Of a DNA stretch of 64,000 nucleotides, positions 14,750 through 23,607 are shown piece by piece. The translations under genes were made by a program, and so were the position numbers. How positions within the stretch are numbered: the first letter of the stretch is position 1; every line of letters begins with the position of its first letter. Origin of the DNA: Dehalococcoidia bacterium (GTDB taxonomy: Bacteria; Chloroflexota; Dehalococcoidia; GIF9; AB-539-J10); the NCBI GenBank assembly GCA_030605765.1, contig JAUWHP010000033.1, positions 7,812-71,811 of the forward strand, read 5' to 3'. A model generated the notes under the pieces. It searched no databases. It was not told the DNA's origin and saw nothing but the letters and a program-made list of their open reading frames with translations.

Positions 14750-15961
14750 ATGGGCGAGACCTCTGGAGTAGGGGTTATTATAGTTGCTGCTGGCAAGGCT
14801 GAGCGGATGGGTGCTACGGACAAAATCTTTGCTCCCTTGGCGGGCAAACCTGTATTAGCTTGGCCGGTGGATACATGCCAGCGATGTAGCTTAGTTAAGC
14901 AGATAATCATTACGCTGAATAATGGCAATCTAAAGCCAGGCCAGAAGTTAAAAGAAGAAAGAGCTTGGACCAAGGCTACTATGTGTCTTGGTGGTGCACA
15001 GCGACAAGACTCGGTAAAGGAAGGGCTACTCAAGCTGAAGGACTGTGATCGAGTCATAATTCACGATGGAGCTCGCCCTTTCCTGACTTCGGATTTAATT
15101 CAAAATGGCTTGGAGGCAGCCAAAGAAACTGGTGCTGCTGTAGCTGCCGTGCCGGTTAAGGATACCATCAAATTTACCGATGATACGGGGTTAATTACGG
15201 AAACGCTTCAGCGTAATAGGTTGTGGGCAGTACAAACTCCACAAATATTCAGCTTTGATGTAATAAACCAGGCTTACCAGGAACTCACAACCGAGATTAC
15301 TGATGACGCCGCTGCTGTGGAGCGCTCAGGACACAAAGTGAAGATTTATCCTGGCGATTACAATAATATAAAGATAACCACACCTGAGGATTTGGCGCTA
15401 GCGGAGATTATTGCACGGCTTAATCCTGAACAAAGCAAGTGCCCTCCTTGTTACCCTGAGCGGCACGAAGGAGCTAAGGAAGAACTGAGAGTTGGCATTG
15501 GCTATGATAGCCATCCTTTGGTTCCGGGGCGCAAGCTGGTTTTGGGTGGTGTGGATATTCCTTATGATAAGGGCTTATTAGGGCGGAGTGATGCTGATGT
15601 GGCCACTCACGCTATTATAGATGCTTTGTGTGGTGCCGCTGATCTTGGTGATATTGGCACTCGGTTCCCTCCGGAAGATCCGAGGCACGAAGGCATCTCC
15701 AGTTTGGATTTGCTGAATGAAATTCGTAAGCTACTTGAAGGAAAAAACTTTAAGGTAACTAATATCGATACTACTATCATTGCCCAACGTCCCAAACTTT
15801 CGCCTTTTGTTCCTGAGATGAGAAAACAAATCAGCCAAGCTTTAGGTATTAAAACGACACAGGTGACGATTAAAGCTACTACCACCGATGGTTTAGGTTT
15901 TATCGGTAGAGAAGAGGGAATAGCTGCTCAATCTGTAGCTTTAGTTACCACCATTTTATAA
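14750..15961 (+). CDS. ispDF: bifunctional 2-C-methyl-D-erythritol 4-phosphate cytidylyltransferase / 2-C-methyl-D-erythritol 2,4-cyclodiphosphate synthase
   Basis: N-terminal IspD (VIIVAAGKAERMG) fused to C-terminal IspF (RVGIGYDSHPL...GRSDADV). Confidence 0.92.
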   Translation: MGETSGVGVIIVAAGKAERMGATDKIFAPLAGKPVLAWPVDTCQRCSLVKQIIITLNNGNLKPGQKLKEERAWTKATMCLGGAQRQDSVKEGLLKLKDCDRVIIHDGARPFLTSDLIQNGLEAAKETGAAVAAVPVKDTIKFTDDTGLITETLQRNRLWAVQTPQIFSFDVINQAYQELTTEITDDAAAVERSGHKVKIYPGDYNNIKITTPEDLALAEIIARLNPEQSKCPPCYPERHEGAKEELRVGIGYDSHPLVPGRKLVLGGVDIPYDKGLLGRSDADVATHAIIDALCGAADLGDIGTRFPPEDPRHEGISSLDLLNEIRKLLEGKNFKVTNIDTTIIAQRPKLSPFVPEMRKQISQALGIKTTQVTIKATTTDGLGFIGREEGIAAQSVALVTTIL

Positions 15962-16212
15962 CTTGGTTTACCTTCTTCCCAGTAGACTATAAATTTGACT
16001 GCTCTCTGTTGTGTCAAATACTCTTCACTTTCCCGGCGCAGCTTTTTGAAATCCGTTGATTCTAAAAAGGCCTTGAGAAGCTCGATATTCATTGCTGCTT
16101 CTTTGTCTTCTTGCGCACTTTCCATATACTTGTTTACCAGGCTCCAGAATTCTTCTCTGGCTACAGTTTCTATGCAATGGGAAAGGCTGGGCAAAAGGTC
16201 TATACAACCCAT
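15928..16212 (-). CDS. hypothetical small acidic protein (convergent with ispDF, overlapping its 3' end)
   Basis: 94-aa ORF with no recognisable domain and helical/acidic composition. The real start may be an internal Met. Confidence 0.3.
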   Translation of the reverse strand: MGCIDLLPSLSHCIETVAREEFWSLVNKYMESAQEDKEAAMNIELLKAFLESTDFKKLRRESEEYLTQQRAVKFIVYWEEGKPSYKMVVTKATD

Positions 16213-16251: not shown

Positions 16252-16280
16252 TTGACAGCATTAATGATGGGTGTTAGAAT
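16252..16280 (+). promoter_or_regulatory. near-consensus sigma70-type promoter (TTGACA, 17-nt spacer, TAGAAT) for the DUF134 operon
   Basis: TTGACAgcattaatgatgggtgtTAGAAT read directly from the sequence, about 50 nt upstream of the DUF134 gene start. Confidence 0.55.
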
Positions 16281-16329: not shown

Positions 16330-16794
16330 TTGGCTAGGCCGGTGAAATTGCGGTGTGTTGCCCAATTACCTAGAGCGGGTTTTTTTAGGCCGGTAGGGCC
16401 TCCAGCAAGTGCTTTACAAAAGGTTTGCCTTTCTGTGGAAGAAATCGAATCTATTCGGCTTAAGGATTTTGAGGGGTTGGAGCAGGAGGAATGTGCTCAA
16501 GAGATGCGCATCTCCAGGCCAACTTTCCACCGTATATTAGGGTCAGCCAGAAAGAAATTGGCCGATGCCTTGGTTAATGGCAAAGCGATTCAAGTTGAAG
16601 GTGGTAACTTTGGATTAGCTCAAAGTTATTTTAGGTGTAACAATGATGGACATGAATGGAATGTACCTTTTGAGGCTCTGGCACGTGGATTTCCATTATC
16701 TTGCCCTATATGCTCCAGTGCGAACATCCAGCCTTTGCCTTCATTTGGCTTTGGGAAAAGATATGGCAGGCGATTCCGTGGAGGAAGAGTTTAA
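16330..16794 (+). CDS. DUF134 (UPF0251) family putative DNA-binding protein with C-terminal Cys-containing extension
   Basis: N-terminus MARPVKLRCVAQLPRAGFFRPVGPP...VEEIESIRLKDFEGLEQEECAQEMRISRPTFHRILGSARKKLADALVNGKAI matches the DUF134 signature (sigma-70 region-4-like HTH). The C-terminal extension has C-x4-H ... CPIC. Confidence 0.8.
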   Translation: MARPVKLRCVAQLPRAGFFRPVGPPASALQKVCLSVEEIESIRLKDFEGLEQEECAQEMRISRPTFHRILGSARKKLADALVNGKAIQVEGGNFGLAQSYFRCNNDGHEWNVPFEALARGFPLSCPICSSANIQPLPSFGFGKRYGRRFRGGRV

Positions 16795-16837
16795 CAATGG
16801 AATACAAGAAGAATATAAGAAAAGGAGGTGAGTAAGA

Positions 16838-17077
16838 ATGCCATTTGGAGATGGAACAGGGCCAGTAGGGTTGGGTCCAATGACGGGCAGAGCAGCGGGT
16901 TTTTGTGCCGGTTTCGGCAGGCCTGGGTTTGCCAATCCCATTCCTGGAAGTTGGTTTGGCTTTGGCAGTGGGGCACCTTATGGGCATTACTATGCTGGGC
17001 GTTATAGCCGTTTCTATCCTTGGCGAGGTCGGGGCAGACGGTGGAGATGGTGGGCGCCCTATCGGTATTCCTGGTAA
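16838..17077 (+). CDS. Gly-rich small protein, DUF5320-like N-terminal module (MPFGDGTGPVGLGPMTGRAAGFC...); C-terminal part apparently out of frame
   Basis: Strong RBS aaggaggtg, conserved N-terminal motif shared with 17298 and 18548. The C-terminus (RGRGRRWRWWAPYRYSW) looks like frame-shifted sequence. Confidence 0.6.
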   Translation: MPFGDGTGPVGLGPMTGRAAGFCAGFGRPGFANPIPGSWFGFGSGAPYGHYYAGRYSRFYPWRGRGRRWRWWAPYRYSW

Positions 17078-17103
17078 GGAAGAAATTTAGGGGGGGTGAT
17101 ATA

Positions 17104-17280
17104 ATGTGGCCTTGGTTTGGACGGAATCCTTGGGGATGGCCTGCATATAGAATGCCTTATGGTTACCCGTGGGGAGCCATACCTAAAGAGGAAGAGATAA
17201 GAATGCTTAAAGAGCAAGAGAGATGGCTGACGAACGAACTGAATGATGTAAAGAAGAGACTTGAAGAAATTCGCAAATAA
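17104..17280 (+). CDS. small Trp/Pro-rich protein with C-terminal coiled-coil (DUF5320-like C-terminal module)
   Basis: 58 aa: MWPWFGRNPWGWPAYRMPYGYPWGAIPKEEEIRMLKEQERWLTNELNDVKKRLEEIRK. A G7 tract plus ATG sits at 17090-17106. The coiled-coil motif recurs in the 17298 and 17705 products. Confidence 0.5.
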   Translation: MWPWFGRNPWGWPAYRMPYGYPWGAIPKEEEIRMLKEQERWLTNELNDVKKRLEEIRK

Positions 17281-17297
17281 AATTAAGGAGGTGAATT

Positions 17298-17690
17298 ATG
17301 CCAGGATTTGATGGAACAGGACCAGGTGGAATGGGTCCGATGACAGGAGGTGGAAGGGGTTTTTGTAGCCCCTGGGGCTCAGGCGGTTGGCACGGTTTAG
17401 GGAGAGGAGGCGGTTTTGGATTTAGGGGAAGCTCTCCTCCGTGGCCTTTTGTTGGTATAGGTAGGGGGGGATTGCCCAGAGGTGCGTATCCGGGAGCTGC
17501 TGGGATGCCTGTATCACCAGCCTACCCCTCTTATAGTAGCCCTTCGACTATGCCTTATGGGAGTAGCCCTTACGCTGCACAAATGACTCGGGAGCAGGAA
17601 ATGGATTTTCTGAAGAGCCAAACTGAAGCAATGAAGGGGCAATTGGAGCAAATTGGTGCTAGAATGAAAGAACTGGAAACAGAAGAATAA
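17298..17690 (+). CDS. DUF5320-like Gly-rich protein (full length: N-terminal GDGTGP motif plus C-terminal coiled-coil)
   Basis: RBS aaggaggtg. Sequence MPGFDGTGPGGMGPMTGGGRGFC ... REQEMDFLKSQTEAMKGQLEQIGARMKELE. Confidence 0.75.
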   Translation: MPGFDGTGPGGMGPMTGGGRGFCSPWGSGGWHGLGRGGGFGFRGSSPPWPFVGIGRGGLPRGAYPGAAGMPVSPAYPSYSSPSTMPYGSSPYAAQMTREQEMDFLKSQTEAMKGQLEQIGARMKELETEE

Positions 17691-17704
17691 GAAGGAGGAG
17701 AATC

Positions 17705-18283
17705 ATGAAGATCGGAGTGTCAGCAATAGCTCCTAGTTTAGATGCTGAAGTGGACCCCCGGTTTGGAAGATGCCAATACTTTGTCATTGTTGATCCGCAA
17801 ACCATGGAATTTGAAGCTTTACAGAATTCTAGTGCCATGGCTGCAGGTGGAGCTGGCATTAGCACGGCTCAGATGATTGCCAATAAAGGGGTACAAGTAA
17901 TACTTACCGGCAATTGTGGGCCTAATGCTTATCAGACATTATCCGCTGCTGGACTTCAGGTGATCACTGGCGCTGCCGGCAGGATAAGGGATGTTGTGCA
18001 GGCTTATAAGGATGGTAAATTTCAACCAACTGCTCAGGCTAATGTAGGTAGCCATTATGGCATGGGCAGTGGCTCTGGTATGGGTATGGGCCGCGGCATG
18101 GGCATGGGCATGGGTAGAGGAATGGGGCGTGGTATGGGGATGGCATCTATGACAGAGCCAGTACCTCAAGCCGTGGGCCCAGAACAAGAGACAGAGATGC
18201 TTAAAAGCCAGGCACAGGTATTAGGGCAGCAATTAAATGAAATACAACGGCGTATTGAGGAGTTAAGTAAAAAGAAGGAGTAA
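17705..18283 (+). CDS. NifX/NafY-like dinitrogenase FeMo-cofactor-binding family protein (Nitro_FeMo-Co, PF02579-like) with Met/Gly-repeat and coiled-coil C-terminal tail
   Basis: MKIGVSA...VDPRFGRCQYFVIVD...GAGISTAQMIANKGVQVILTGNCGPNAYQTL is a Nitro_FeMo-Co fold signature. The tail has GMGSGSGMGMGRGMGMGMGRGMGRGMGM followed by ETEMLKSQAQVLGQQLNEIQRRIEEL. Confidence 0.8.
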   Translation: MKIGVSAIAPSLDAEVDPRFGRCQYFVIVDPQTMEFEALQNSSAMAAGGAGISTAQMIANKGVQVILTGNCGPNAYQTLSAAGLQVITGAAGRIRDVVQAYKDGKFQPTAQANVGSHYGMGSGSGMGMGRGMGMGMGRGMGRGMGMASMTEPVPQAVGPEQETEMLKSQAQVLGQQLNEIQRRIEELSKKKE

Positions 18284-18292
18284 GGAGGTGCT

Positions 18293-18505
18293 ATGCCCAT
18301 CTATGAATATCAATGCACTCAGTGCGGACAAAAATTCGAGGTTCGCCAAACGATTGGTGAGGGAGGTTCTAAGCTAAGCTGCCCTAAATGCCATGCCTCA
18401 AATCCTGAAAGGCTCTTTTCTTCGTTCTTCAGCCCAGCCTCAATCACAACTGAGTCTTCAGGGACAAGCTGTCCTACTTGCAACTCTGGAATTTGTGGGC
18501 TGTAG
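18293..18505 (+). CDS. FmdB-family zinc-ribbon protein
   Basis: MPIYEYQCTQCGQKFEV...LSCPKCHAS is the hallmark FmdB CxxC...CxxC. An extra C-terminal CPTCNSGIC is present. Confidence 0.8.
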   Translation: MPIYEYQCTQCGQKFEVRQTIGEGGSKLSCPKCHASNPERLFSSFFSPASITTESSGTSCPTCNSGICGL

Positions 18506-18547
18506 CCTAGAAGCTAAAGAGAGCCGATTTCTATTGGAGGTGTTATT

Positions 18548-18772
18548 ATGTCCAGAGGAGATGGCACAGGCCCTTTGGGTCAGGGACGGGGGACAGGAAA
18601 AGGGATGGGCCGTGGTATGGGAAGTGGGAGAATGGGAGGGAACCGCCCTGGAGCGGGTCCTAGCGGAAACTGCGTTTGCCCCAGTTGTGGGACAAAAGTC
18701 TCCCACCAGGTGGGCGTTCCCTGTTACAACCTGAGTTGTCCTAAGTGCGGGACGAAAATGATTAGAGAATAG
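18548..18772 (+). CDS. Gly-rich (GDGTGP motif) small protein fused to a C-terminal zinc ribbon
   Basis: MSRGDGTGPLGQGRGTGKGMGRGMG... then CVCPSCGTK...CPKCGTK. Confidence 0.65.
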   Translation: MSRGDGTGPLGQGRGTGKGMGRGMGSGRMGGNRPGAGPSGNCVCPSCGTKVSHQVGVPCYNLSCPKCGTKMIRE

Positions 18773-18773
18773 A

Positions 18774-19634
18774 ATGATAATCTCCGTTGCCAGCGGTAAA
18801 GGAGGCACAGGGAAAACGCTGGTAGCTGTAAATCTGGCTCTTACTTTGAGTGATGTGTACAGAGTACAGCTATTAGATTGTGATGTAGAGGAGCCAGATG
18901 CGCATATTTTTCTTCATTTAGCTACTAATCGAAGCGAAGCGGTAGTGATTCCTGTGCCTAGAATAGATGAGACGAAGTGTACCTATTGTGGCAGGTGTGC
19001 TGAAGTCTGTGTCTATAATGCTATCGCTGTGCTTAAGGGAAAGGTGCTCGTTTTCCCTGAGTTATGCCATGGCTGTGGAGCGTGTTCTTACTTATGCCCC
19101 GAGTCAGCTATTTCCGAGGAGGGGAGAGAAATAGGAGTGGTGGAAACAGGGGATTCAGGAAATATGGAGTTTATTCAGGGACGACTTGCCATTGGAGAGC
19201 CAATGGCTCCACCTATAATCAGGGAGGTAAAGAAGCACATTGATCGTGTAAGAGAGGTCATTATCGATGTTCCTCCAGGAACTTCTTGCCCCGTAGTAGA
19301 GGCAGTTAAGAGTAGTGACTTCTGCCTCTTGGTGACTGAGCCTACTCCTTTTGGGTTGAATGACCTTTCGCTAGCAGTAGAGCTGGTAAGAAAATTGCAA
19401 ATCCCATGCGGGGTGATAATTAACCGAAGTGGCGTAGGAGATGAAAAAGTTGAGCAATACTGTCAGGAGCAGGGGATACCCATCTTGCTGAAGATTCCTT
19501 TAGATAGAAATATTGCCACACTCTATTCGAAAGGAATCCCCTTGATAGCAGGTATGCCTGAGTGGCGTGGGGTCTTTGTTACTCTTTTTCAAAATATAAA
19601 GCAGATAGACTCAGCTAGTCGGGTGGTGAAATGA
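18774..19634 (+). CDS. MinD/ParA-superfamily P-loop ATPase with inserted 2x[4Fe-4S] ferredoxin domain
   Basis: Deviant Walker A SGKGGTGKT, ferredoxin insert CTYCGRCAEVC...CHGCGACSYLCP, then the continued ATPase fold (DVPPGTSCP). Confidence 0.85.
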   Translation: MIISVASGKGGTGKTLVAVNLALTLSDVYRVQLLDCDVEEPDAHIFLHLATNRSEAVVIPVPRIDETKCTYCGRCAEVCVYNAIAVLKGKVLVFPELCHGCGACSYLCPESAISEEGREIGVVETGDSGNMEFIQGRLAIGEPMAPPIIREVKKHIDRVREVIIDVPPGTSCPVVEAVKSSDFCLLVTEPTPFGLNDLSLAVELVRKLQIPCGVIINRSGVGDEKVEQYCQEQGIPILLKIPLDRNIATLYSKGIPLIAGMPEWRGVFVTLFQNIKQIDSASRVVK

Positions 19635-19759
19635 CGGCTTGGCAGCAAATTGCCATAGATGGTGAAACACACGTTAAGAGAATAACGGATCAGTATGAGG
19701 AGTTTGGTTTTCAAGTTCGCCTTGAAGAAGTTAAGCCTGCGGAAGCAGGAGGTTGGTAA
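19631..19759 (+). CDS. small ORF (42 aa) translationally coupled between the two MinD-ferredoxin ATPase genes
   Basis: ATGA start/stop overlap with the upstream gene. Sequence MTAWQQIAIDGETHVKRITDQYEEFGFQVRLEEVKPAEAGGW. It is too short to appear in the ORF track and there is no homology evidence. Confidence 0.3.
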   Translation: MTAWQQIAIDGETHVKRITDQYEEFGFQVRLEEVKPAEAGGW

Positions 19760-19765
19760 ATACAA

Positions 19766-20626
19766 ATGAAAGAGGTTGTGGTTCTGAGCGGCAAGGGAGG
19801 AACCGGGAAGACAAGCTTGGTAGCTTCGTTTGCCGCTTTAGCTCAAAGTAAAGTATTGGTTGACTGCGATGTTGATGCCGCAGACCTCTACCTTCTTCTC
19901 AAACCACAAGTTACGGAGGAAAACGAATTTTGGAGTGGCCAGATTGCCTTCATTGATAAAAAAGTATGCACTGAGTGTGGACTTTGCCAGGAAATGTGCC
20001 GTTTTGGAGCTATAAAGGATTACTTTGTTGATAAGATTTCTTGTGAGGGCTGCGGGCTATGTTCTCAAATCTGCCCCGTTAATGCTATTATTATGCAATC
20101 TTGTATGGCTGGACACTGGTTTATTTCTGAGACAAGCTATGGCACTCTCATTCATGCTAAATTGGGAATTACTGAGGAAAGCTCCGGCAAGTTAGTAACC
20201 TTGGTTCGGAATAGCGCCAGGCTTGTAGCGGAGGAGGGAAAATTCGATTATATCATCAGCGATGGTCCTCCAGGTATTGGCTGCCCGGTTATCGCTTCTC
20301 TATCCGGAGCTAATTTGGCACTCCTGGTAATCGAGCCTACATTATCAGGAATCCATGACCTCGAGCGTGTAATTGGTGTCTGCCGCCACTTTGGCATTCC
20401 CATTCTGGTTTGCATAAACAAATATGACATAAACGAAGAAAACTCTTATCGCATTGAAGATTACTGTCATAACAACGATATAGAAGTGGCAGTAAAAATT
20501 CCTTTTGACAATGTAGTGACTGAGGCAATTGTTGAGGGCTTACCTGTAGTGGAGTACTCCGACGGCAAAGTAACTCAGCAGGTGAGGGAGCTATGGAAAA
20601 TTGTTTCAGTAAAGTTAAATAATTAG
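19766..20626 (+). CDS. MinD/ParA-superfamily P-loop ATPase with inserted 2x[4Fe-4S] ferredoxin domain (paralog)
   Basis: SGKGGTGKT, ferredoxin insert CTECGLCQEMC...CEGCGLCSQICP, DGPPGIGCP. Confidence 0.85.
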   Translation: MKEVVVLSGKGGTGKTSLVASFAALAQSKVLVDCDVDAADLYLLLKPQVTEENEFWSGQIAFIDKKVCTECGLCQEMCRFGAIKDYFVDKISCEGCGLCSQICPVNAIIMQSCMAGHWFISETSYGTLIHAKLGITEESSGKLVTLVRNSARLVAEEGKFDYIISDGPPGIGCPVIASLSGANLALLVIEPTLSGIHDLERVIGVCRHFGIPILVCINKYDINEENSYRIEDYCHNNDIEVAVKIPFDNVVTEAIVEGLPVVEYSDGKVTQQVRELWKIVSVKLNN

Positions 20627-20636
20627 GAGGGAAGAG

Positions 20637-20879
20637 ATGCCAATTTATGAATATAGGTGTTTGAATTGTGGGAGGATATCAGAAATCCTCCTTCGCAATC
20701 TGGACAACGAAAACATTGAGTGCCCAATATGCGGCAGCGAGAATCTGGAAAAGCTTTTGTCTGCTTCCTATGCTATAAGGATGAATGATTCTATGCCTGC
20801 TGGAACTTGCTGCGGCAGAACAGAGCGCTGCGAGACACCTCCTTGCTCTGTGAATGGCACCTGTAGGAGGAATGACTGA
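20637..20879 (+). CDS. FmdB-family zinc-ribbon protein (paralog)
   Basis: MPIYEYRCLNCGRISEI...IECPICGSE, with a Cys-rich C-terminal tail. Confidence 0.8.
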   Translation: MPIYEYRCLNCGRISEILLRNLDNENIECPICGSENLEKLLSASYAIRMNDSMPAGTCCGRTERCETPPCSVNGTCRRND

Positions 20880-20881
20880 AA

Positions 20882-21220
20882 ATGAGATACGCGGTACCTG
20901 TAGTAGATGGCAAAGTGGCTGAGCACTTTGGCCATTGTAGCCATTTTGCCTTGTTTGATATCGATGAAACGAGCAAGGTGATTGTGAAGAAGGAGGTAAT
21001 AGCTTCGCCAGGACATCAACCTGGATTTCTTCCAGAGTGGCTGGCTGCGGAAGGAGTTTCCGTTGTTATAGCTAATGGCATGGGATCCAGGGCACAAAGC
21101 CTTTTTAGAGAGAGCCGTATTGAAGTTGTTACTGGCACGCTAGGAGATGAGCCACAGGAAGCCGTTCTAGCTTACCTGAGAGGTACATTGGCTACTGGCG
21201 ATAATTTGTGTGACCATTAA
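20882..21220 (+). CDS. NifX/NafY-like (Nitro_FeMo-Co family) protein (paralog, no tail)
   Basis: MRYAVPVVDGKVAEHFGHCSHFALFDIDE...VIANGMGSRAQSLF. Confidence 0.8.
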   Translation: MRYAVPVVDGKVAEHFGHCSHFALFDIDETSKVIVKKEVIASPGHQPGFLPEWLAAEGVSVVIANGMGSRAQSLFRESRIEVVTGTLGDEPQEAVLAYLRGTLATGDNLCDH

Positions 21221-21246
21221 GTACATGAAGATAGGAGGCAGATGTT

Positions 21247-22248
21247 ATGGCAACTGAAGATTCGGTGATTGAAGCGTTAAATAAAGTGCTTGTCCCTGGA
21301 GCAATGCGTAGCTTGGTGCAGATGAATTTGTTGCGAAACGTTGAAGTTAAAGATGGAGAGGCGAAAATCACTTTGGCTTCGACTGCTATCCCTGCCCAAT
21401 CTCAGGATTGGTTAAGGGCTAAAGTGACCACAGCAGTTCGCGAACTGCCTGAAGTGAAAGGAGTTGTTGTTGACCTTGTAGAAGCCAAACCTAAGGAACT
21501 TAACCAAATTCAGAATATAATAGCTGTGATGAGTGGAAAAGGTGGAGTGGGCAAATCTTTGGTAGCTGGCTTACTGGCTGTTGCTTTTGCTCGAGATGGT
21601 AAGGAGGTTGGTATACTTGATGCTGACATTACCGGCCCTAGCATCCCTAAAATGTTTGGTTTAAATATTCACCCTAGTGGCAGCGAGACAGGTATCTTGC
21701 CGATATTATCGAGGTCTGGAATTGAAGTTATGTCTATGAACCTTCTATTGCCTAGCGAAGATGAAGCAGTTATTTGGAGAGGCCCTCTTATGTCAAAAGC
21801 CATTACGCAGTTCTGGGAGGAGGTGCTTTGGGGCAACCTTGATTATCTCGTGGTTGATTTGCCACCTGGTACTGCGGATGCCGCATTGACAGTATTGCAG
21901 ACTTTACCGCTTGCCGGTGTAATCGACGTTTTTACTCCTCAGGAGTTGACGGGAATGATAGTGAAAAAGGCAGTGAAAATGGCAAGGAAATTAAACGTTC
22001 GTGTTCTGGGGGTAATAGAGAACATGAGCTATCTGTTGTTACCCGAAACGGGCAAAAAACTGGAGGTTTTTGGCCGGAGCAAGGGAGAGGAAATGGCTAA
22101 GGCCTGTGAAGCACCACTGTTAGGGCAATTGCCTATTGACCCTCAATTGGCTAAATTGTGTGATGAAGGAAATATTGAGAGATACAATTCGGATGCCTTG
22201 TCACAAATCTTTGCCAATGTAGGTGCTGCTCTAAATGAGAGAAAGTGA
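21247..22248 (+). CDS. Mrp/NBP35/ApbC-family P-loop ATPase with N-terminal DUF59/MIP18-like domain; lacks the canonical CxxC cluster-bridging motif
   Basis: DUF59-like N-terminus (LLRNVEVKDGEAKITL), Walker A SGKGGVGKS, and the conserved ENMS segment present as VIENMSYLLLPETGKK with no cysteines. Confidence 0.8.
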   Translation: MATEDSVIEALNKVLVPGAMRSLVQMNLLRNVEVKDGEAKITLASTAIPAQSQDWLRAKVTTAVRELPEVKGVVVDLVEAKPKELNQIQNIIAVMSGKGGVGKSLVAGLLAVAFARDGKEVGILDADITGPSIPKMFGLNIHPSGSETGILPILSRSGIEVMSMNLLLPSEDEAVIWRGPLMSKAITQFWEEVLWGNLDYLVVDLPPGTADAALTVLQTLPLAGVIDVFTPQELTGMIVKKAVKMARKLNVRVLGVIENMSYLLLPETGKKLEVFGRSKGEEMAKACEAPLLGQLPIDPQLAKLCDEGNIERYNSDALSQIFANVGAALNERK

Positions 22249-22266
22249 AATCCTAAGTCAGGAGGA

Positions 22267-22728
22267 ATGACAGTGGAAGTTGGAAATTCCTTTAAAGAGT
22301 TGGAGGAATCTGTTATGCAGGATATGCTAAAAACCTATTCTGAGGAAGCAATCGACCATTTTCTTAACCCGAGAAATCTGGGGCAGATTGAATCTCCAGA
22401 TGGGTTTGGAAGGGTAACCGGCCCTTGTGGGGATACCATGGAGATATATCTCAGGGTAAATGGAGGCAGGATTACAAATGCTACCTTCCTGACTGGTGGC
22501 TGTGGCCCCAGTATCGCCTCCGGCAGCATGGCCACTGAGCTAATTAAAGGAAAGAGCATTGTTGAGGCTCAGAACATAAGCCAAGATAATATTCTAAATG
22601 CCTTAGGAGGACTTCCTGAGGAGAGCCAGCACTGTGCCCTTCTGGCGGCAAATGCACTTAAAGAAACAGTTAGAGACTATTTAGCCTTCAAAAACGAACC
22701 TTGGAAAAGGCTTTATAAAGTCCACTAG
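22267..22728 (+). CDS. IscU/NifU-N-like Fe-S cluster scaffold protein
   Basis: Three conserved Cys in their expected contexts: GPCGDTM, GGCGPS, QHCALLA. An alternative start lies at the ATG near 22309. Confidence 0.8.
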   Translation: MTVEVGNSFKELEESVMQDMLKTYSEEAIDHFLNPRNLGQIESPDGFGRVTGPCGDTMEIYLRVNGGRITNATFLTGGCGPSIASGSMATELIKGKSIVEAQNISQDNILNALGGLPEESQHCALLAANALKETVRDYLAFKNEPWKRLYKVH

Positions 22729-22871
22729 AACCTGAAGCGGATAGAATGAATTTGCCACCTGTGGTATAGCCCTGCTTTGAGAGTGTGATGGTAGTTTGAA
22801 CCTTATGCCTGAAGGTAAGCCGCTGGATTTGTAGTAGATTTTGCGGCGAAGGCAAAACTTCTAGCCACCTT

Positions 22872-23141
22872 ATGTTAAAAGTAAATGTGAATCTTTGTGT
22901 GGGTTGTGCTTTATGCGCCCAGGTATGCCCTCAAGGGGCTATCAGCCTCATTGGGGGCAAAGCAGAGGTAGATACCAGTAAATGTGACTCTTGCTATTGG
23001 TGTCTTGAAGCGTGCCCTCGAGGCGCAATTTCTGAGTTGATTATAGTCTCCCCGGAGGAACTAAGAGTTACTGTTTCTACGCTAAAGCGACAAACAGATG
23101 ATATAATAAAGAGGATTAACAGGCTGGCTACCAAGGTTTAG
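22872..23141 (+). CDS. 2[4Fe-4S] ferredoxin
   Basis: CVGCALCAQVCP and CDSCYWCLEACP clusters. Confidence 0.75.
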   Translation: MLKVNVNLCVGCALCAQVCPQGAISLIGGKAEVDTSKCDSCYWCLEACPRGAISELIIVSPEELRVTVSTLKRQTDDIIKRINRLATKV

Positions 23142-23151
23142 GGTTATCGTC

Positions 23152-23607
23152 GTGAAAGAACAGCGGATTTTAGAATTGAAGCCCATAGGGGTAATCCATT
23201 CGCCTTACCCTGATAGGGGAGAAGCACCACGTCAGGGCTGCGGGCGAGATGAAATCTGCCGGGTAGAAGTGTTCAAAGAATTTGAAGAGGGCTTGAAAGA
23301 CATAGATGGTTTTTCCCACGTTAGCTTGATATATTGGTTTCATAAATCTGGAGGATATCGTCTGCTCATTACAACCCCGTGGGATACAAAGCTGCATGGG
23401 CTTTTTACTACGAGGTCGCCAAACAGACCCTGCCCATTGGGGTTATGCTTGGTGGAGTTGGTTGCCCGGGAAGGGAATATTCTCAGTGTAAAGGGGTTGG
23501 ATGCTATAGACGGCACTCCGCTTTTGGATATCAAGCCATACATTCCCTCTATAGATGAGAAAACTAACGGCCAAGTTGGGTGGCTTAAAGACAGATTCAA
23601 AGGTTAG
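23152..23607 (+). CDS. tsaA: tRNA (N6-threonylcarbamoyladenosine(37)-N6)-methyltransferase TrmO / TsaA (YaeB family)
   Basis: 151-aa ORF with GTG start. It contains the YaeB-like beta-barrel core (IGVIHSPY...RSPNRPCPLG...LDGTPLLDIKPY). Confidence 0.75.
   Translation: MKEQRILELKPIGVIHSPYPDRGEAPRQGCGRDEICRVEVFKEFEEGLKDIDGFSHVSLIYWFHKSGGYRLLITTPWDTKLHGLFTTRSPNRPCPLGLCLVELVAREGNILSVKGLDAIDGTPLLDIKPYIPSIDEKTNGQVGWLKDRFKG

Follow-up and report, generated by a model that had tools for sequence, protein, structure and literature searches.

A probable Dehalococcoidia version of the gene cluster for the orange protein (ORP) complex, with a paired MinD-ferredoxin ATPase core and an incidental mirror gene order

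Introduction

The orange protein (ORP) complex of Desulfovibrio vulgaris Hildenborough comprises Orp3, Orp4, Orp5, Orp8, and Orp9 (PMC6345978). Orp3 and Orp4 are paralogs (41% similar) with two [4Fe-4S] motifs each; Orp5 and Orp8 are NifX-like, and Orp9 (MrpORP) is an Mrp/NBP35 protein fused to a Di-Nase (PF02579) domain (PMC6345978). Orp4 and Orp8 co-purify with Orp3, and in vitro these proteins receive Fe-S clusters from MrpORP (PMC6345978). The genes form the operons orp5-orp4-orp3 and orp7-orp8-orp9, arranged around the sigma-54 activator gene orpR (PMC8359166, PMC4641369). Another described relative of the proteins treated here is IssA, which consists of a NifX-like domain and a Gly-rich, aromatic, cationic tail (PMC5524996). 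Here we describe a gene cluster of probably the same kind in a Dehalococcoidia bacterium, located in a stretch of 64,000 nucleotides (nt) from contig JAUWHP010000033.1 of assembly GCA_030605765.1 (positions 7,812 to 71,811 of the forward strand; hereinafter referred to as the window).

The cluster attracted attention by its gene order, in which NifX-like, FmdB, and MinD-ferredoxin (MinD-Fd) genes appear twice each in mirror-symmetric arrangement. An original prediction, made from the sequence, interpreted this as a pair maintained after ancient duplication and encoding either two parallel NifX-FmdB-MinD sub-assemblies or a heterodimeric ATPase with a dedicated FmdB and NifX partner for each protomer. 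Our analysis leads to a different reading, to which we assign a probability of roughly 80%: the operon at about 16330-23607 is the Dehalococcoidia version of the anaerobe-specific ORP complex system, and its mirror order is incidental.

Results

Genes of the mirrored region

Eight open reading frames (ORFs), all on the + strand, were confirmed in the mirrored region. Their predicted families and order were borne out by profiles and by an independent gene call on the ENA contig L081 (MinD-Fd identical), which returned the same gene set, including the ORF of 42 amino acids (aa) at the center. They are listed below together with the Mrp gene, which encodes a third SIMIBI ATPase and abuts the right end of the mirror.

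17705-18283, + strand: NifX-like protein type 1 (NifX1); PF02579, ORP structure 2WFB (3.4e-21), MTH1175 (3.6e-18)
18293-18505, + strand: FmdB-family zinc ribbon protein of the Fmd1 orthogroup, 70 aa; PF09723, TIGR02605
18548-18772, + strand: GlyZn, with a Gly-rich DUF5320 N-motif and a CxxC...CxxC zinc ribbon; profile match
18774-19634, + strand: MinD-Fd A, SIMIBI ATPase of the MinD-Mrp class into which a 2x[4Fe-4S] ferredoxin domain is inserted; CbiA/ParA and 2x Fer4
19631-19759, + strand: truncated remnant (42 aa) of a gene for a small CxxC protein, 68 aa in locus L001
19766-20626, + strand: MinD-Fd B, paralog of MinD-Fd A; CbiA/ParA and 2x Fer4
20637-20879, + strand: FmdB-family zinc ribbon protein of the Fmd2 orthogroup, 80 aa; PF09723, TIGR02605
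20882-21220, + strand: NifX-like protein type 2 (NifX2), apparent free-standing Di-Nase half of MrpORP; PF02579, NF041136 positions 265-365 (9.1e-34)
21247-22248, + strand: Mrp/NBP35 Fe-S carrier ATPase with an N-terminal DUF59, P-loop half of MrpORP; NF041136 positions 1-239 (3.2e-92)

Each of the three types was present exactly twice, as predicted, with no further copy of NifX-like, FmdB, or MinD-Fd elsewhere within the 64-kb window. The paralogs were clearly diverged, with identities of 34% between MinD-Fd A and B, 33% between Fmd1 and Fmd2, and 23% between NifX1 and NifX2.

The MinD-Fd A/B ATPase pair

A scan with one genome per species, in which ORFs were annotated with home-made profiles built from the window proteins and rebuilt with length filters, retained the 80 best loci with MinD-Fd A (MinA) orthologs at 53-98% identity. 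These loci belonged to Chloroflexota, Omnitrophota, Planctomycetota, Ignavibacteria, Desulfobacterota, Bacillota, Bathyarchaeia, and other archaea. All 80 had MinD-Fd B downstream of MinD-Fd A on the same strand, and the two genes abutted or overlapped in roughly four fifths of them. In a neighbor-joining tree of the 76 complete pairs from bacteria and archaea, the A and B clades were reciprocally monophyletic. Identity was at least 44% among A sequences and at least 43% among B sequences, and at most 38% between the classes; the nearest neighbor of every one of the 152 sequences fell in its own class. Because the clades are reciprocally monophyletic and A always precedes B, the duplication is ancient and obligately kept, and the split came before all bacterial and archaeal lineages of the sample diverged. 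The idea of an ancient duplication maintained as a pair is supported for MinD-Fd; the FmdB genes were missing from most loci.

Both classes conserved, at 95% or more, the signature Lys and the rest of the Walker A motif, the Asp residues of switch I and of Walker B, the eight cysteines of the ferredoxin domain, and Cys172, and the nucleotide-binding residues were all kept in both paralogs. In addition, 13 positions were fixed within the classes but different between A and B. The invariant pair, the intact catalytic residues, the class-specific differences, and the published co-purification of Orp3 and Orp4 make an obligate hetero-oligomeric SIMIBI ATPase, with four [4Fe-4S] clusters per heterodimer, plausible (PMC6345978). 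To that extent the proposal of a hetero-oligomeric ATPase is sustained. The pair forms the invariant core of the cluster across bacteria and archaea, and its two intact active sites argue for an obligate hetero-oligomer.

Apart from the eight ferredoxin cysteines, two conserved ones (numbered as in MinD-Fd A) lie in the switch regions. Cys172, within the switch II motif DxPPGxxCP (window positions approximately 19287-19289), was invariant in both classes across the 76 loci, and Cys36, within the switch I motif DCD (approximately 18879-18881), was nearly as conserved (99% of A sequences, 82% of B sequences). Cys172 stands seven residues past the Walker B Asp, as Cys132 does past Asp125 in NifH; we treat this as a lead only. 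From their conservation, Cys36 and Cys172 could be ligands of an additional, possibly inter-subunit, metal site. No solved structure covering the whole MinD-Fd protein was found, and an AlphaFold2 model of MinD-Fd A based on a 6-sequence alignment had a mean pLDDT (predicted local distance difference test score) of 56.7 and was not used for fold searches.

NifX-like proteins and an apparently divided MrpORP

The two NifX-like genes are not equivalent: comparison with the MrpORP model, fused homologs, and motifs assigned NifX1 to the ORP/IssA type and NifX2 to the Di-Nase half of MrpORP. For NifX1, the best solved relative was the ORP of Desulfovibrio gigas (2WFB, over residues 2-110), followed by MTH1175. 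The protein is built from a PF02579 domain of the ORP/MTH1175 (IssA) type, a Gly-rich cationic (GMGR)n segment, and a DUF5320-type coiled-coil tail. Residues 109-150 have an isoelectric point (pI) of 11.7 and contain 15 Gly and 3 Arg; this part is Met-rich and has no Trp. In composition, the NifX1 tail and a 79-aa DUF5320 protein encoded upstream resemble the cationic Gly-rich tail of IssA, which has been proposed to wrap anionic thioferrate. At the DNA level, a tandem repeat with a 12-nt period (18058-18138) encodes the (G-M-G-R/S)n part of the NifX1 tail, and a related repeat stretch (18589-18621) was observed in the Gly-rich N-terminus of GlyZn.

NF041136, the NCBIfam model of MrpORP, has 365 positions and a cut-off of 450 bits for one polypeptide. 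Positions 1-239 were matched by residues 85-323 of Mrp (309.6 bits) and positions 265-365 by residues 1-103 of NifX2 (117.3 bits), whereas NifX1 reached only 39 bits. The parts that match the two halves of the MrpORP model are encoded unfused in adjacent genes of the window, the Di-Nase gene preceding that of Mrp. Over its full length, NifX2 also matched the C-terminal domain of fused Mrp-NifX proteins of 410-439 aa (1e-28 to 1e-34), which occurred in five Desulfobacterota loci, all with orthologs of both ATPases. NifX2 and these fusions have in common an HFGHC motif and a C-terminal N[VL]CDH motif; HFGHC and CDH are motifs highlighted for MrpORP (PMC6345978). Among the NifX domains of the related loci, HFGxC was present in 45 of 54 of the NifX2 type and in 1 of 96 of the NifX1 type; these types were assigned by phmmer scores against the two window proteins together with motifs, the NifX profile being contaminated by Mrp-NifX fusions. 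By sequence, NifX2 thus appears to be the detached Di-Nase half of MrpORP and to belong with the downstream Mrp gene. That MrpORP can exist as two genes would make the Di-Nase domain a separable module.

Both NifX types were widely retained among related loci, and their positions varied by lineage. The A-B pair was flanked by a NifX1-type gene on its upstream side and by one NifX gene on its downstream side in 15 of 21 Chloroflexota loci and in L019 and L043; the downstream gene was mostly of the NifX2 type, and in four loci it was of a type of 98-132 aa that was left unclassified. Two adjacent NifX genes, both upstream, were seen in Omnitrophota, Planctomycetota, Ignavibacteria, most archaea, and Bacillota. 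Several Desulfobacterota had two adjacent NifX genes downstream, often with a third upstream, as with orp5.

FmdB proteins, GlyZn, and the central small ORF

Both FmdB proteins of the window scored above the curated cut-offs of TIGR02605 (66.2 and 56.7 bits against 31.3) and PF09723 (61.1 and 51.8 bits against 34.4). In the related loci, the Fmd1 orthogroup comprised proteins of 59-77 aa and the Fmd2 orthogroup proteins of 78-91 aa, and Pfam confirmed the FmdB genes in L007 and L027. A Cys-rich C-terminal motif of the Fmd2 type, CCGR(T/E)ERCETPPC...G.CRR, was conserved across several phyla (for example, L016:3876 and L054:1). The sequence of this tail suggests a second metal site beyond the zinc ribbon.

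FmdB genes were absent from most loci outside Chloroflexota, and in Ignavibacteria both were upstream of the ATPase pair. Among 22 loci of the Chloroflexota type, the mirrored configuration, Fmd1 upstream and Fmd2 downstream, was found in two, plus one in which it was interrupted. Fmd1 alone occurred upstream in three and downstream in four, both genes stood in tandem downstream in four, Fmd2 alone was downstream in five, and three had no FmdB gene. Even within Dehalococcoidia, the Fmd1-type gene changed sides (upstream in six loci and downstream in eight). A homolog of GlyZn lay directly upstream of the MinD-Fd A gene in about half the related loci. These small proteins, Gly-rich or with zinc ribbons, are accessories that vary by lineage.

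Most related loci had no gene between MinD-Fd A and B. In L001, whose MinD-Fd A is 98% identical, the counterpart of the 42-aa ORF encodes 68 aa with a CxxC motif; compared with it, the window lacks 68 nt between two CGGAAG direct repeats, and the frame is shifted. The same truncated 42-aa form was present in L081. The 42-aa ORF is thus a remnant truncated by a deletion. Homologs of 84-102 aa separated the two ATPase genes in L005, L011, and L018, and in L067 one followed MinD-Fd B. The family (L001:1548-1754, L005:8840-9094, L011:7356-7637, L018:5730-6038, and L067:10116-10388) thus spans 68-102 aa with the pattern GW...Y.E.GFEV.LE...C..C...YR[IV], and its members had no Pfam match.

Mirror order and its conservation

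The predicted mirror is present in the window by gene type, but it is incomplete and not conserved. GlyZn has no counterpart on the other side, the ORF at the center is a remnant, and the Gly-rich DUF5320 motif occurs five times, on the left side only. No repeat linking the paralogs was found at the DNA level; the only repeats were the 12-nt array of the NifX1 tail and the shared DUF5320 N-motif. Because all genes lie on one strand and the paralogs share no DNA repeat, the arrangement is not an inverted duplication.

Such a mirror is not rare by chance: for three pairs of gene types, 6 of 90 possible orders (6.7%) are palindromic, and with the central MinD-Fd pair fixed the fraction is 2 of 6 (33%). 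The full mirror was found only in the window, in L002 (73% MinA identity), in the truncated L001, and, in interrupted form, in L011. The mirror order is an incidental, lineage-restricted outcome of gene shuffling around a fixed A-B pair. It reveals no new architectural principle, and in this respect the finding is mostly ordinary.

Operon layout and neighboring genes

The mirrored genes are part of a single tight co-directional block (16330-23607) that extends from a DUF134 gene to a TrmO-like gene and within which no convincing terminator was found. The order is DUF134, three DUF5320 genes (the first of them split), NifX1, Fmd1, GlyZn, MinD-Fd A, and the 42-aa ORF, followed by MinD-Fd B, Fmd2, NifX2, Mrp, IscU/NifU_N, ferredoxin, and the TrmO_N-like gene. 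The features outside the mirror are as follows.

16252-16280, + strand: sigma-70-like promoter candidate, TTGACA-17-TAGAAT with TG, 11/12 matches (a consensus match only)
16330-16794, + strand: DUF134 protein with a sigma-70 region-4-like helix-turn-helix; PF02001 (8.5e-25), Sigma70_r4-type matches
16838-17077, + strand: DUF5320 N-terminal half, 79 aa, Gly/Arg/aromatic-rich, pI 10.9, composition like the IssA tail
17104-17280, + strand: DUF5320 C-terminal half, 58 aa from ATG, aromatic-rich with a coiled coil; PF17253 positions 43-99
17298-17690, + strand: full-length DUF5320 protein, 130 aa; PF17253 (8.1e-13)
22267-22728, + strand: IscU/NifU_N-type scaffold protein; PF01592 (4.1e-35)
22872-23141, + strand: 2x[4Fe-4S] ferredoxin; profile match
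23152-23607, + strand: TrmO_N/TsaA-like protein, last gene of the block; profile match

The best promoter-like site of the block was located just 5' of the DUF134 gene. DUF134, whose gene is the first of the operon and adjoins the cluster in many related loci, is a probable regulator. Literature searches on DUF134 and DUF5320 and on COG numbers returned nothing relevant to the cluster.

The first DUF5320 gene is split into a 79-aa ORF, with the N-motif and a Gly/Arg/aromatic-rich part, and a 58-aa ORF in another frame. The split was also found in L002, and L004 and L006 had single genes of about 125 aa. A programmed frameshift was considered and set aside; two separate small genes (79 and 58 aa), as in L002, are the simpler explanation. 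In the public gene call on L081, the second part is a gene of 58 aa; for the first part another frame, of 61 aa, was chosen, probably in error.

Further observations concern the surroundings. In Omnitrophota and Planctomycetota loci (L025, L026, L028-L030, L032, L033, L036, L037, and L040), a gap of about 620 nt directly 5' of the MinD-Fd A gene received no profile label. Another conserved gene, about 200 aa in length and missing in the window, is probably encoded there. The TrmO_N/TsaA-like gene recurred by the cluster in several phyla (L034, L043, L044, L051, L075, and L077), which is surprising for a family of tRNA methyltransferases. A 94-aa ORF on the - strand (15928-16212), located between ispDF and the operon, overlaps the end of ispDF by about 30 nt and corresponds to PF27306 (AF_2379) on the identical ENA contig.

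Discussion

Proposed function and competing explanations

As an ORP-type system, the cluster would have at its core the obligate paralogous MinD/Mrp-class ATPases A and B, equivalent to Orp3 and Orp4 and most likely forming a hetero-oligomer. Their NifX-like (PF02579) partners would hold metal-sulfide clusters non-covalently. NifX1 would be the ORP/IssA-type partner with its Gly-rich cationic tail, of which the DUF5320 proteins resemble free-standing copies. NifX2 would work with the adjacent Mrp, and Mrp and its Di-Nase partner may mature or feed the ATPases, with IscU and the ferredoxin encoded next in the same operon. The two FmdB zinc ribbons and GlyZn would be small accessory subunits. 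The whole may serve ATP-coupled handling of Fe-S or metal-sulfide clusters, that is, cluster storage, mobilization, or transfer at low potential. It is a hetero-oligomeric, ATP-coupled role of this kind that we infer for the cluster, and the results narrow the set of proteins to be co-expressed for reconstitution of the ORP complex.

Several points weigh against this assignment. The putative equivalence with Orp3 and Orp4 draws on published accounts of their domains and on the co-occurrence of A and B orthologs with fusions of the MrpORP type, and neither the regulation known from D. vulgaris (sigma-54 and OrpR) nor its divergent operon layout is present here. Within this equivalence, synteny with orp5-orp4-orp3 points to A as the putative counterpart of Orp4. 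As best matches to MinD-Fd A, the 80 loci are no random genome sample; they were annotated from the longest ORFs with home-made hidden Markov models, so that small genes may be missed or mislabeled. Moreover, a cell-division role was put forward for the ORP complex by the group that studies it in D. vulgaris (PMC6345978, PMC4641369).

A system of MinD type for cell division or positioning, the role first suggested for the ORP complex of D. vulgaris, would fit the deviant MinD/ParA Walker A motif of the MinD-Fd ATPases, as well as the localization of MrpORP at the cell poles and the MinD-like C-terminal amphipathic helix reported for Orp3 and Orp4 (PMC6345978). However, both MinD-Fd proteins scored far below the cut-offs of the septum-site MinD models (62-68 bits against 201.75 for TIGR01969 and 36-61 against 212.9 for TIGR01968), no minC or minE gene was found at the locus, and the neighbors are all Fe-S or metal-cluster proteins, namely NifX-like proteins, Mrp, IscU, and ferredoxin. 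In favor of such a system, inactivation of OrpR in D. vulgaris reportedly led to morphological defects in work by Fievet from 2011. The two articles with the cell-division proposal record only the attribution of ORP to cell division (PMC6345978, PMC4641369), and the published biochemistry consists only of Fe-S binding and transfer (PMC6345978). The gene content provides nothing for a role in cell division, and we regard it as quite unlikely. The sub-assembly model of the original prediction, whether as two parallel NifX-FmdB-MinD units or as one FmdB and NifX partner per protomer, is favored by the order NifX-Fmd-(GlyZn)-MinA-MinB-Fmd-NifX in the window and L002, by the age and divergence of the paralog pairs, and by the residues fixed by class in A and B, which would permit paralog-specific partners. 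Nevertheless, in most phyla the NifX genes adjoin one another; most loci lack FmdB, which in most Dehalococcoidia is absent, single, or has both copies on one side; GlyZn breaks the symmetry; and NifX2 appears to be the Di-Nase half of MrpORP. Relatives with a single copy and the other genes intact, which the original prediction named as evidence against it, were found for FmdB; none were found for MinD-Fd or NifX. Comparative gene order has already largely refuted the model, which we consider very unlikely in both forms.

The presence of three gene types twice each within 3.5 kb could also be the trace of a segmental duplication, inverted or tandem, of a NifX-FmdB-MinD module within the lineage. 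An inverted duplication would have flipped the strand and a tandem one would have given a direct rather than a mirrored order, yet all genes share one strand. Each of the two Fmd orthogroups, like each of the two NifX types, occurs across phyla. Together with the A/B tree, in which the split is older than all sampled lineages, and the missing DNA repeat, which led us to reject it, these points leave such a duplication a next to negligible probability. A more novel reading is that the A/B hetero-oligomer acts, like NifH, as an electron donor at low potential or as an insertase, driven by ATP. Cys36 and Cys172 could then bind an additional cluster between the subunits, metal sulfides held by IssA/ORP-type NifX proteins and by 'tail-only' DUF5320 proteins would be mobilized or assembled, and GlyZn and the two FmdB proteins would be small subunits not recognized before in Dehalococcoidia. 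We hold this to be unlikely, and the reductase or insertase activity of MinD-Fd is one that we purely infer. If true, it would imply an ATP-dependent pathway of Fe-S storage and mobilization parallel to ISC/SUF in strict anaerobes.

Comparison with known systems

Both MinD-Fd proteins share with the SIMIBI dimers Mrp/NBP35/ApbC and NifH/BchL the deviant Walker A motif with signature lysine, and with Mrp the DxPPG switch II. In contrast to Mrp and NifH ATPases, they have a complete 2x[4Fe-4S] ferredoxin domain inserted after switch I, and unlike Mrp they have no CxxC bridging motif. By analogy with NifH in FeMo-co maturation, they may act alongside NifX-like cluster carriers.

NifX1 resembles the thioferrate storage proteins IssA and 'IssX' (Pyrococcus furiosus PF2025; MTH1175 clade) in combining an IPR003731/PF02579 domain with a Gly-rich cationic segment. 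Its tail differs in being Gly/Met/Arg-rich, not aromatic, and in having an acidic coiled coil at its end. Like the IssA tail, the 79-aa DUF5320 protein is rich in Gly, Arg, Trp, and Tyr, with a pI of 10.9. The two FmdB proteins have the N-terminal MPxYEYxC...CxxC zinc ribbon of the TIGR02605/PF09723 family. They depart from the general family in that their orthogroups are sporadic accessories of this cluster, Fmd2 with its Cys-rich C-terminal motif.

The closest resemblance is to the ORP cluster of D. vulgaris (Orp3/DVU2103, Orp4/DVU2104, Orp5, Orp7, Orp8, and Orp9). Both have two adjacent paralogous MinD-type ATPases with two [4Fe-4S] motifs each, several single-domain PF02579 proteins including an ORP homolog, and an Mrp/NBP35 carrier plus a Di-Nase domain, and both are restricted to anaerobes. 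Unlike the D. vulgaris cluster, the window has one co-directional operon with a DUF134 helix-turn-helix protein and a sigma-70-like promoter, and the locus contains no enhancer-binding protein (EBP) gene; the two parts of MrpORP lie in separate genes, of which the Di-Nase one comes first; the ORP homolog bears a Gly-rich DUF5320 tail; and genes for DUF5320 proteins, GlyZn, two FmdB proteins, IscU, ferredoxin, and a TrmO-like protein are added. The ORP-type cluster as such is already known from D. vulgaris. New here, as lineage-specific features, are the operon headed by DUF134, the split and permuted MrpORP, the ORP homolog with an IssA-like tail, and the extra DUF5320, GlyZn, and FmdB genes.

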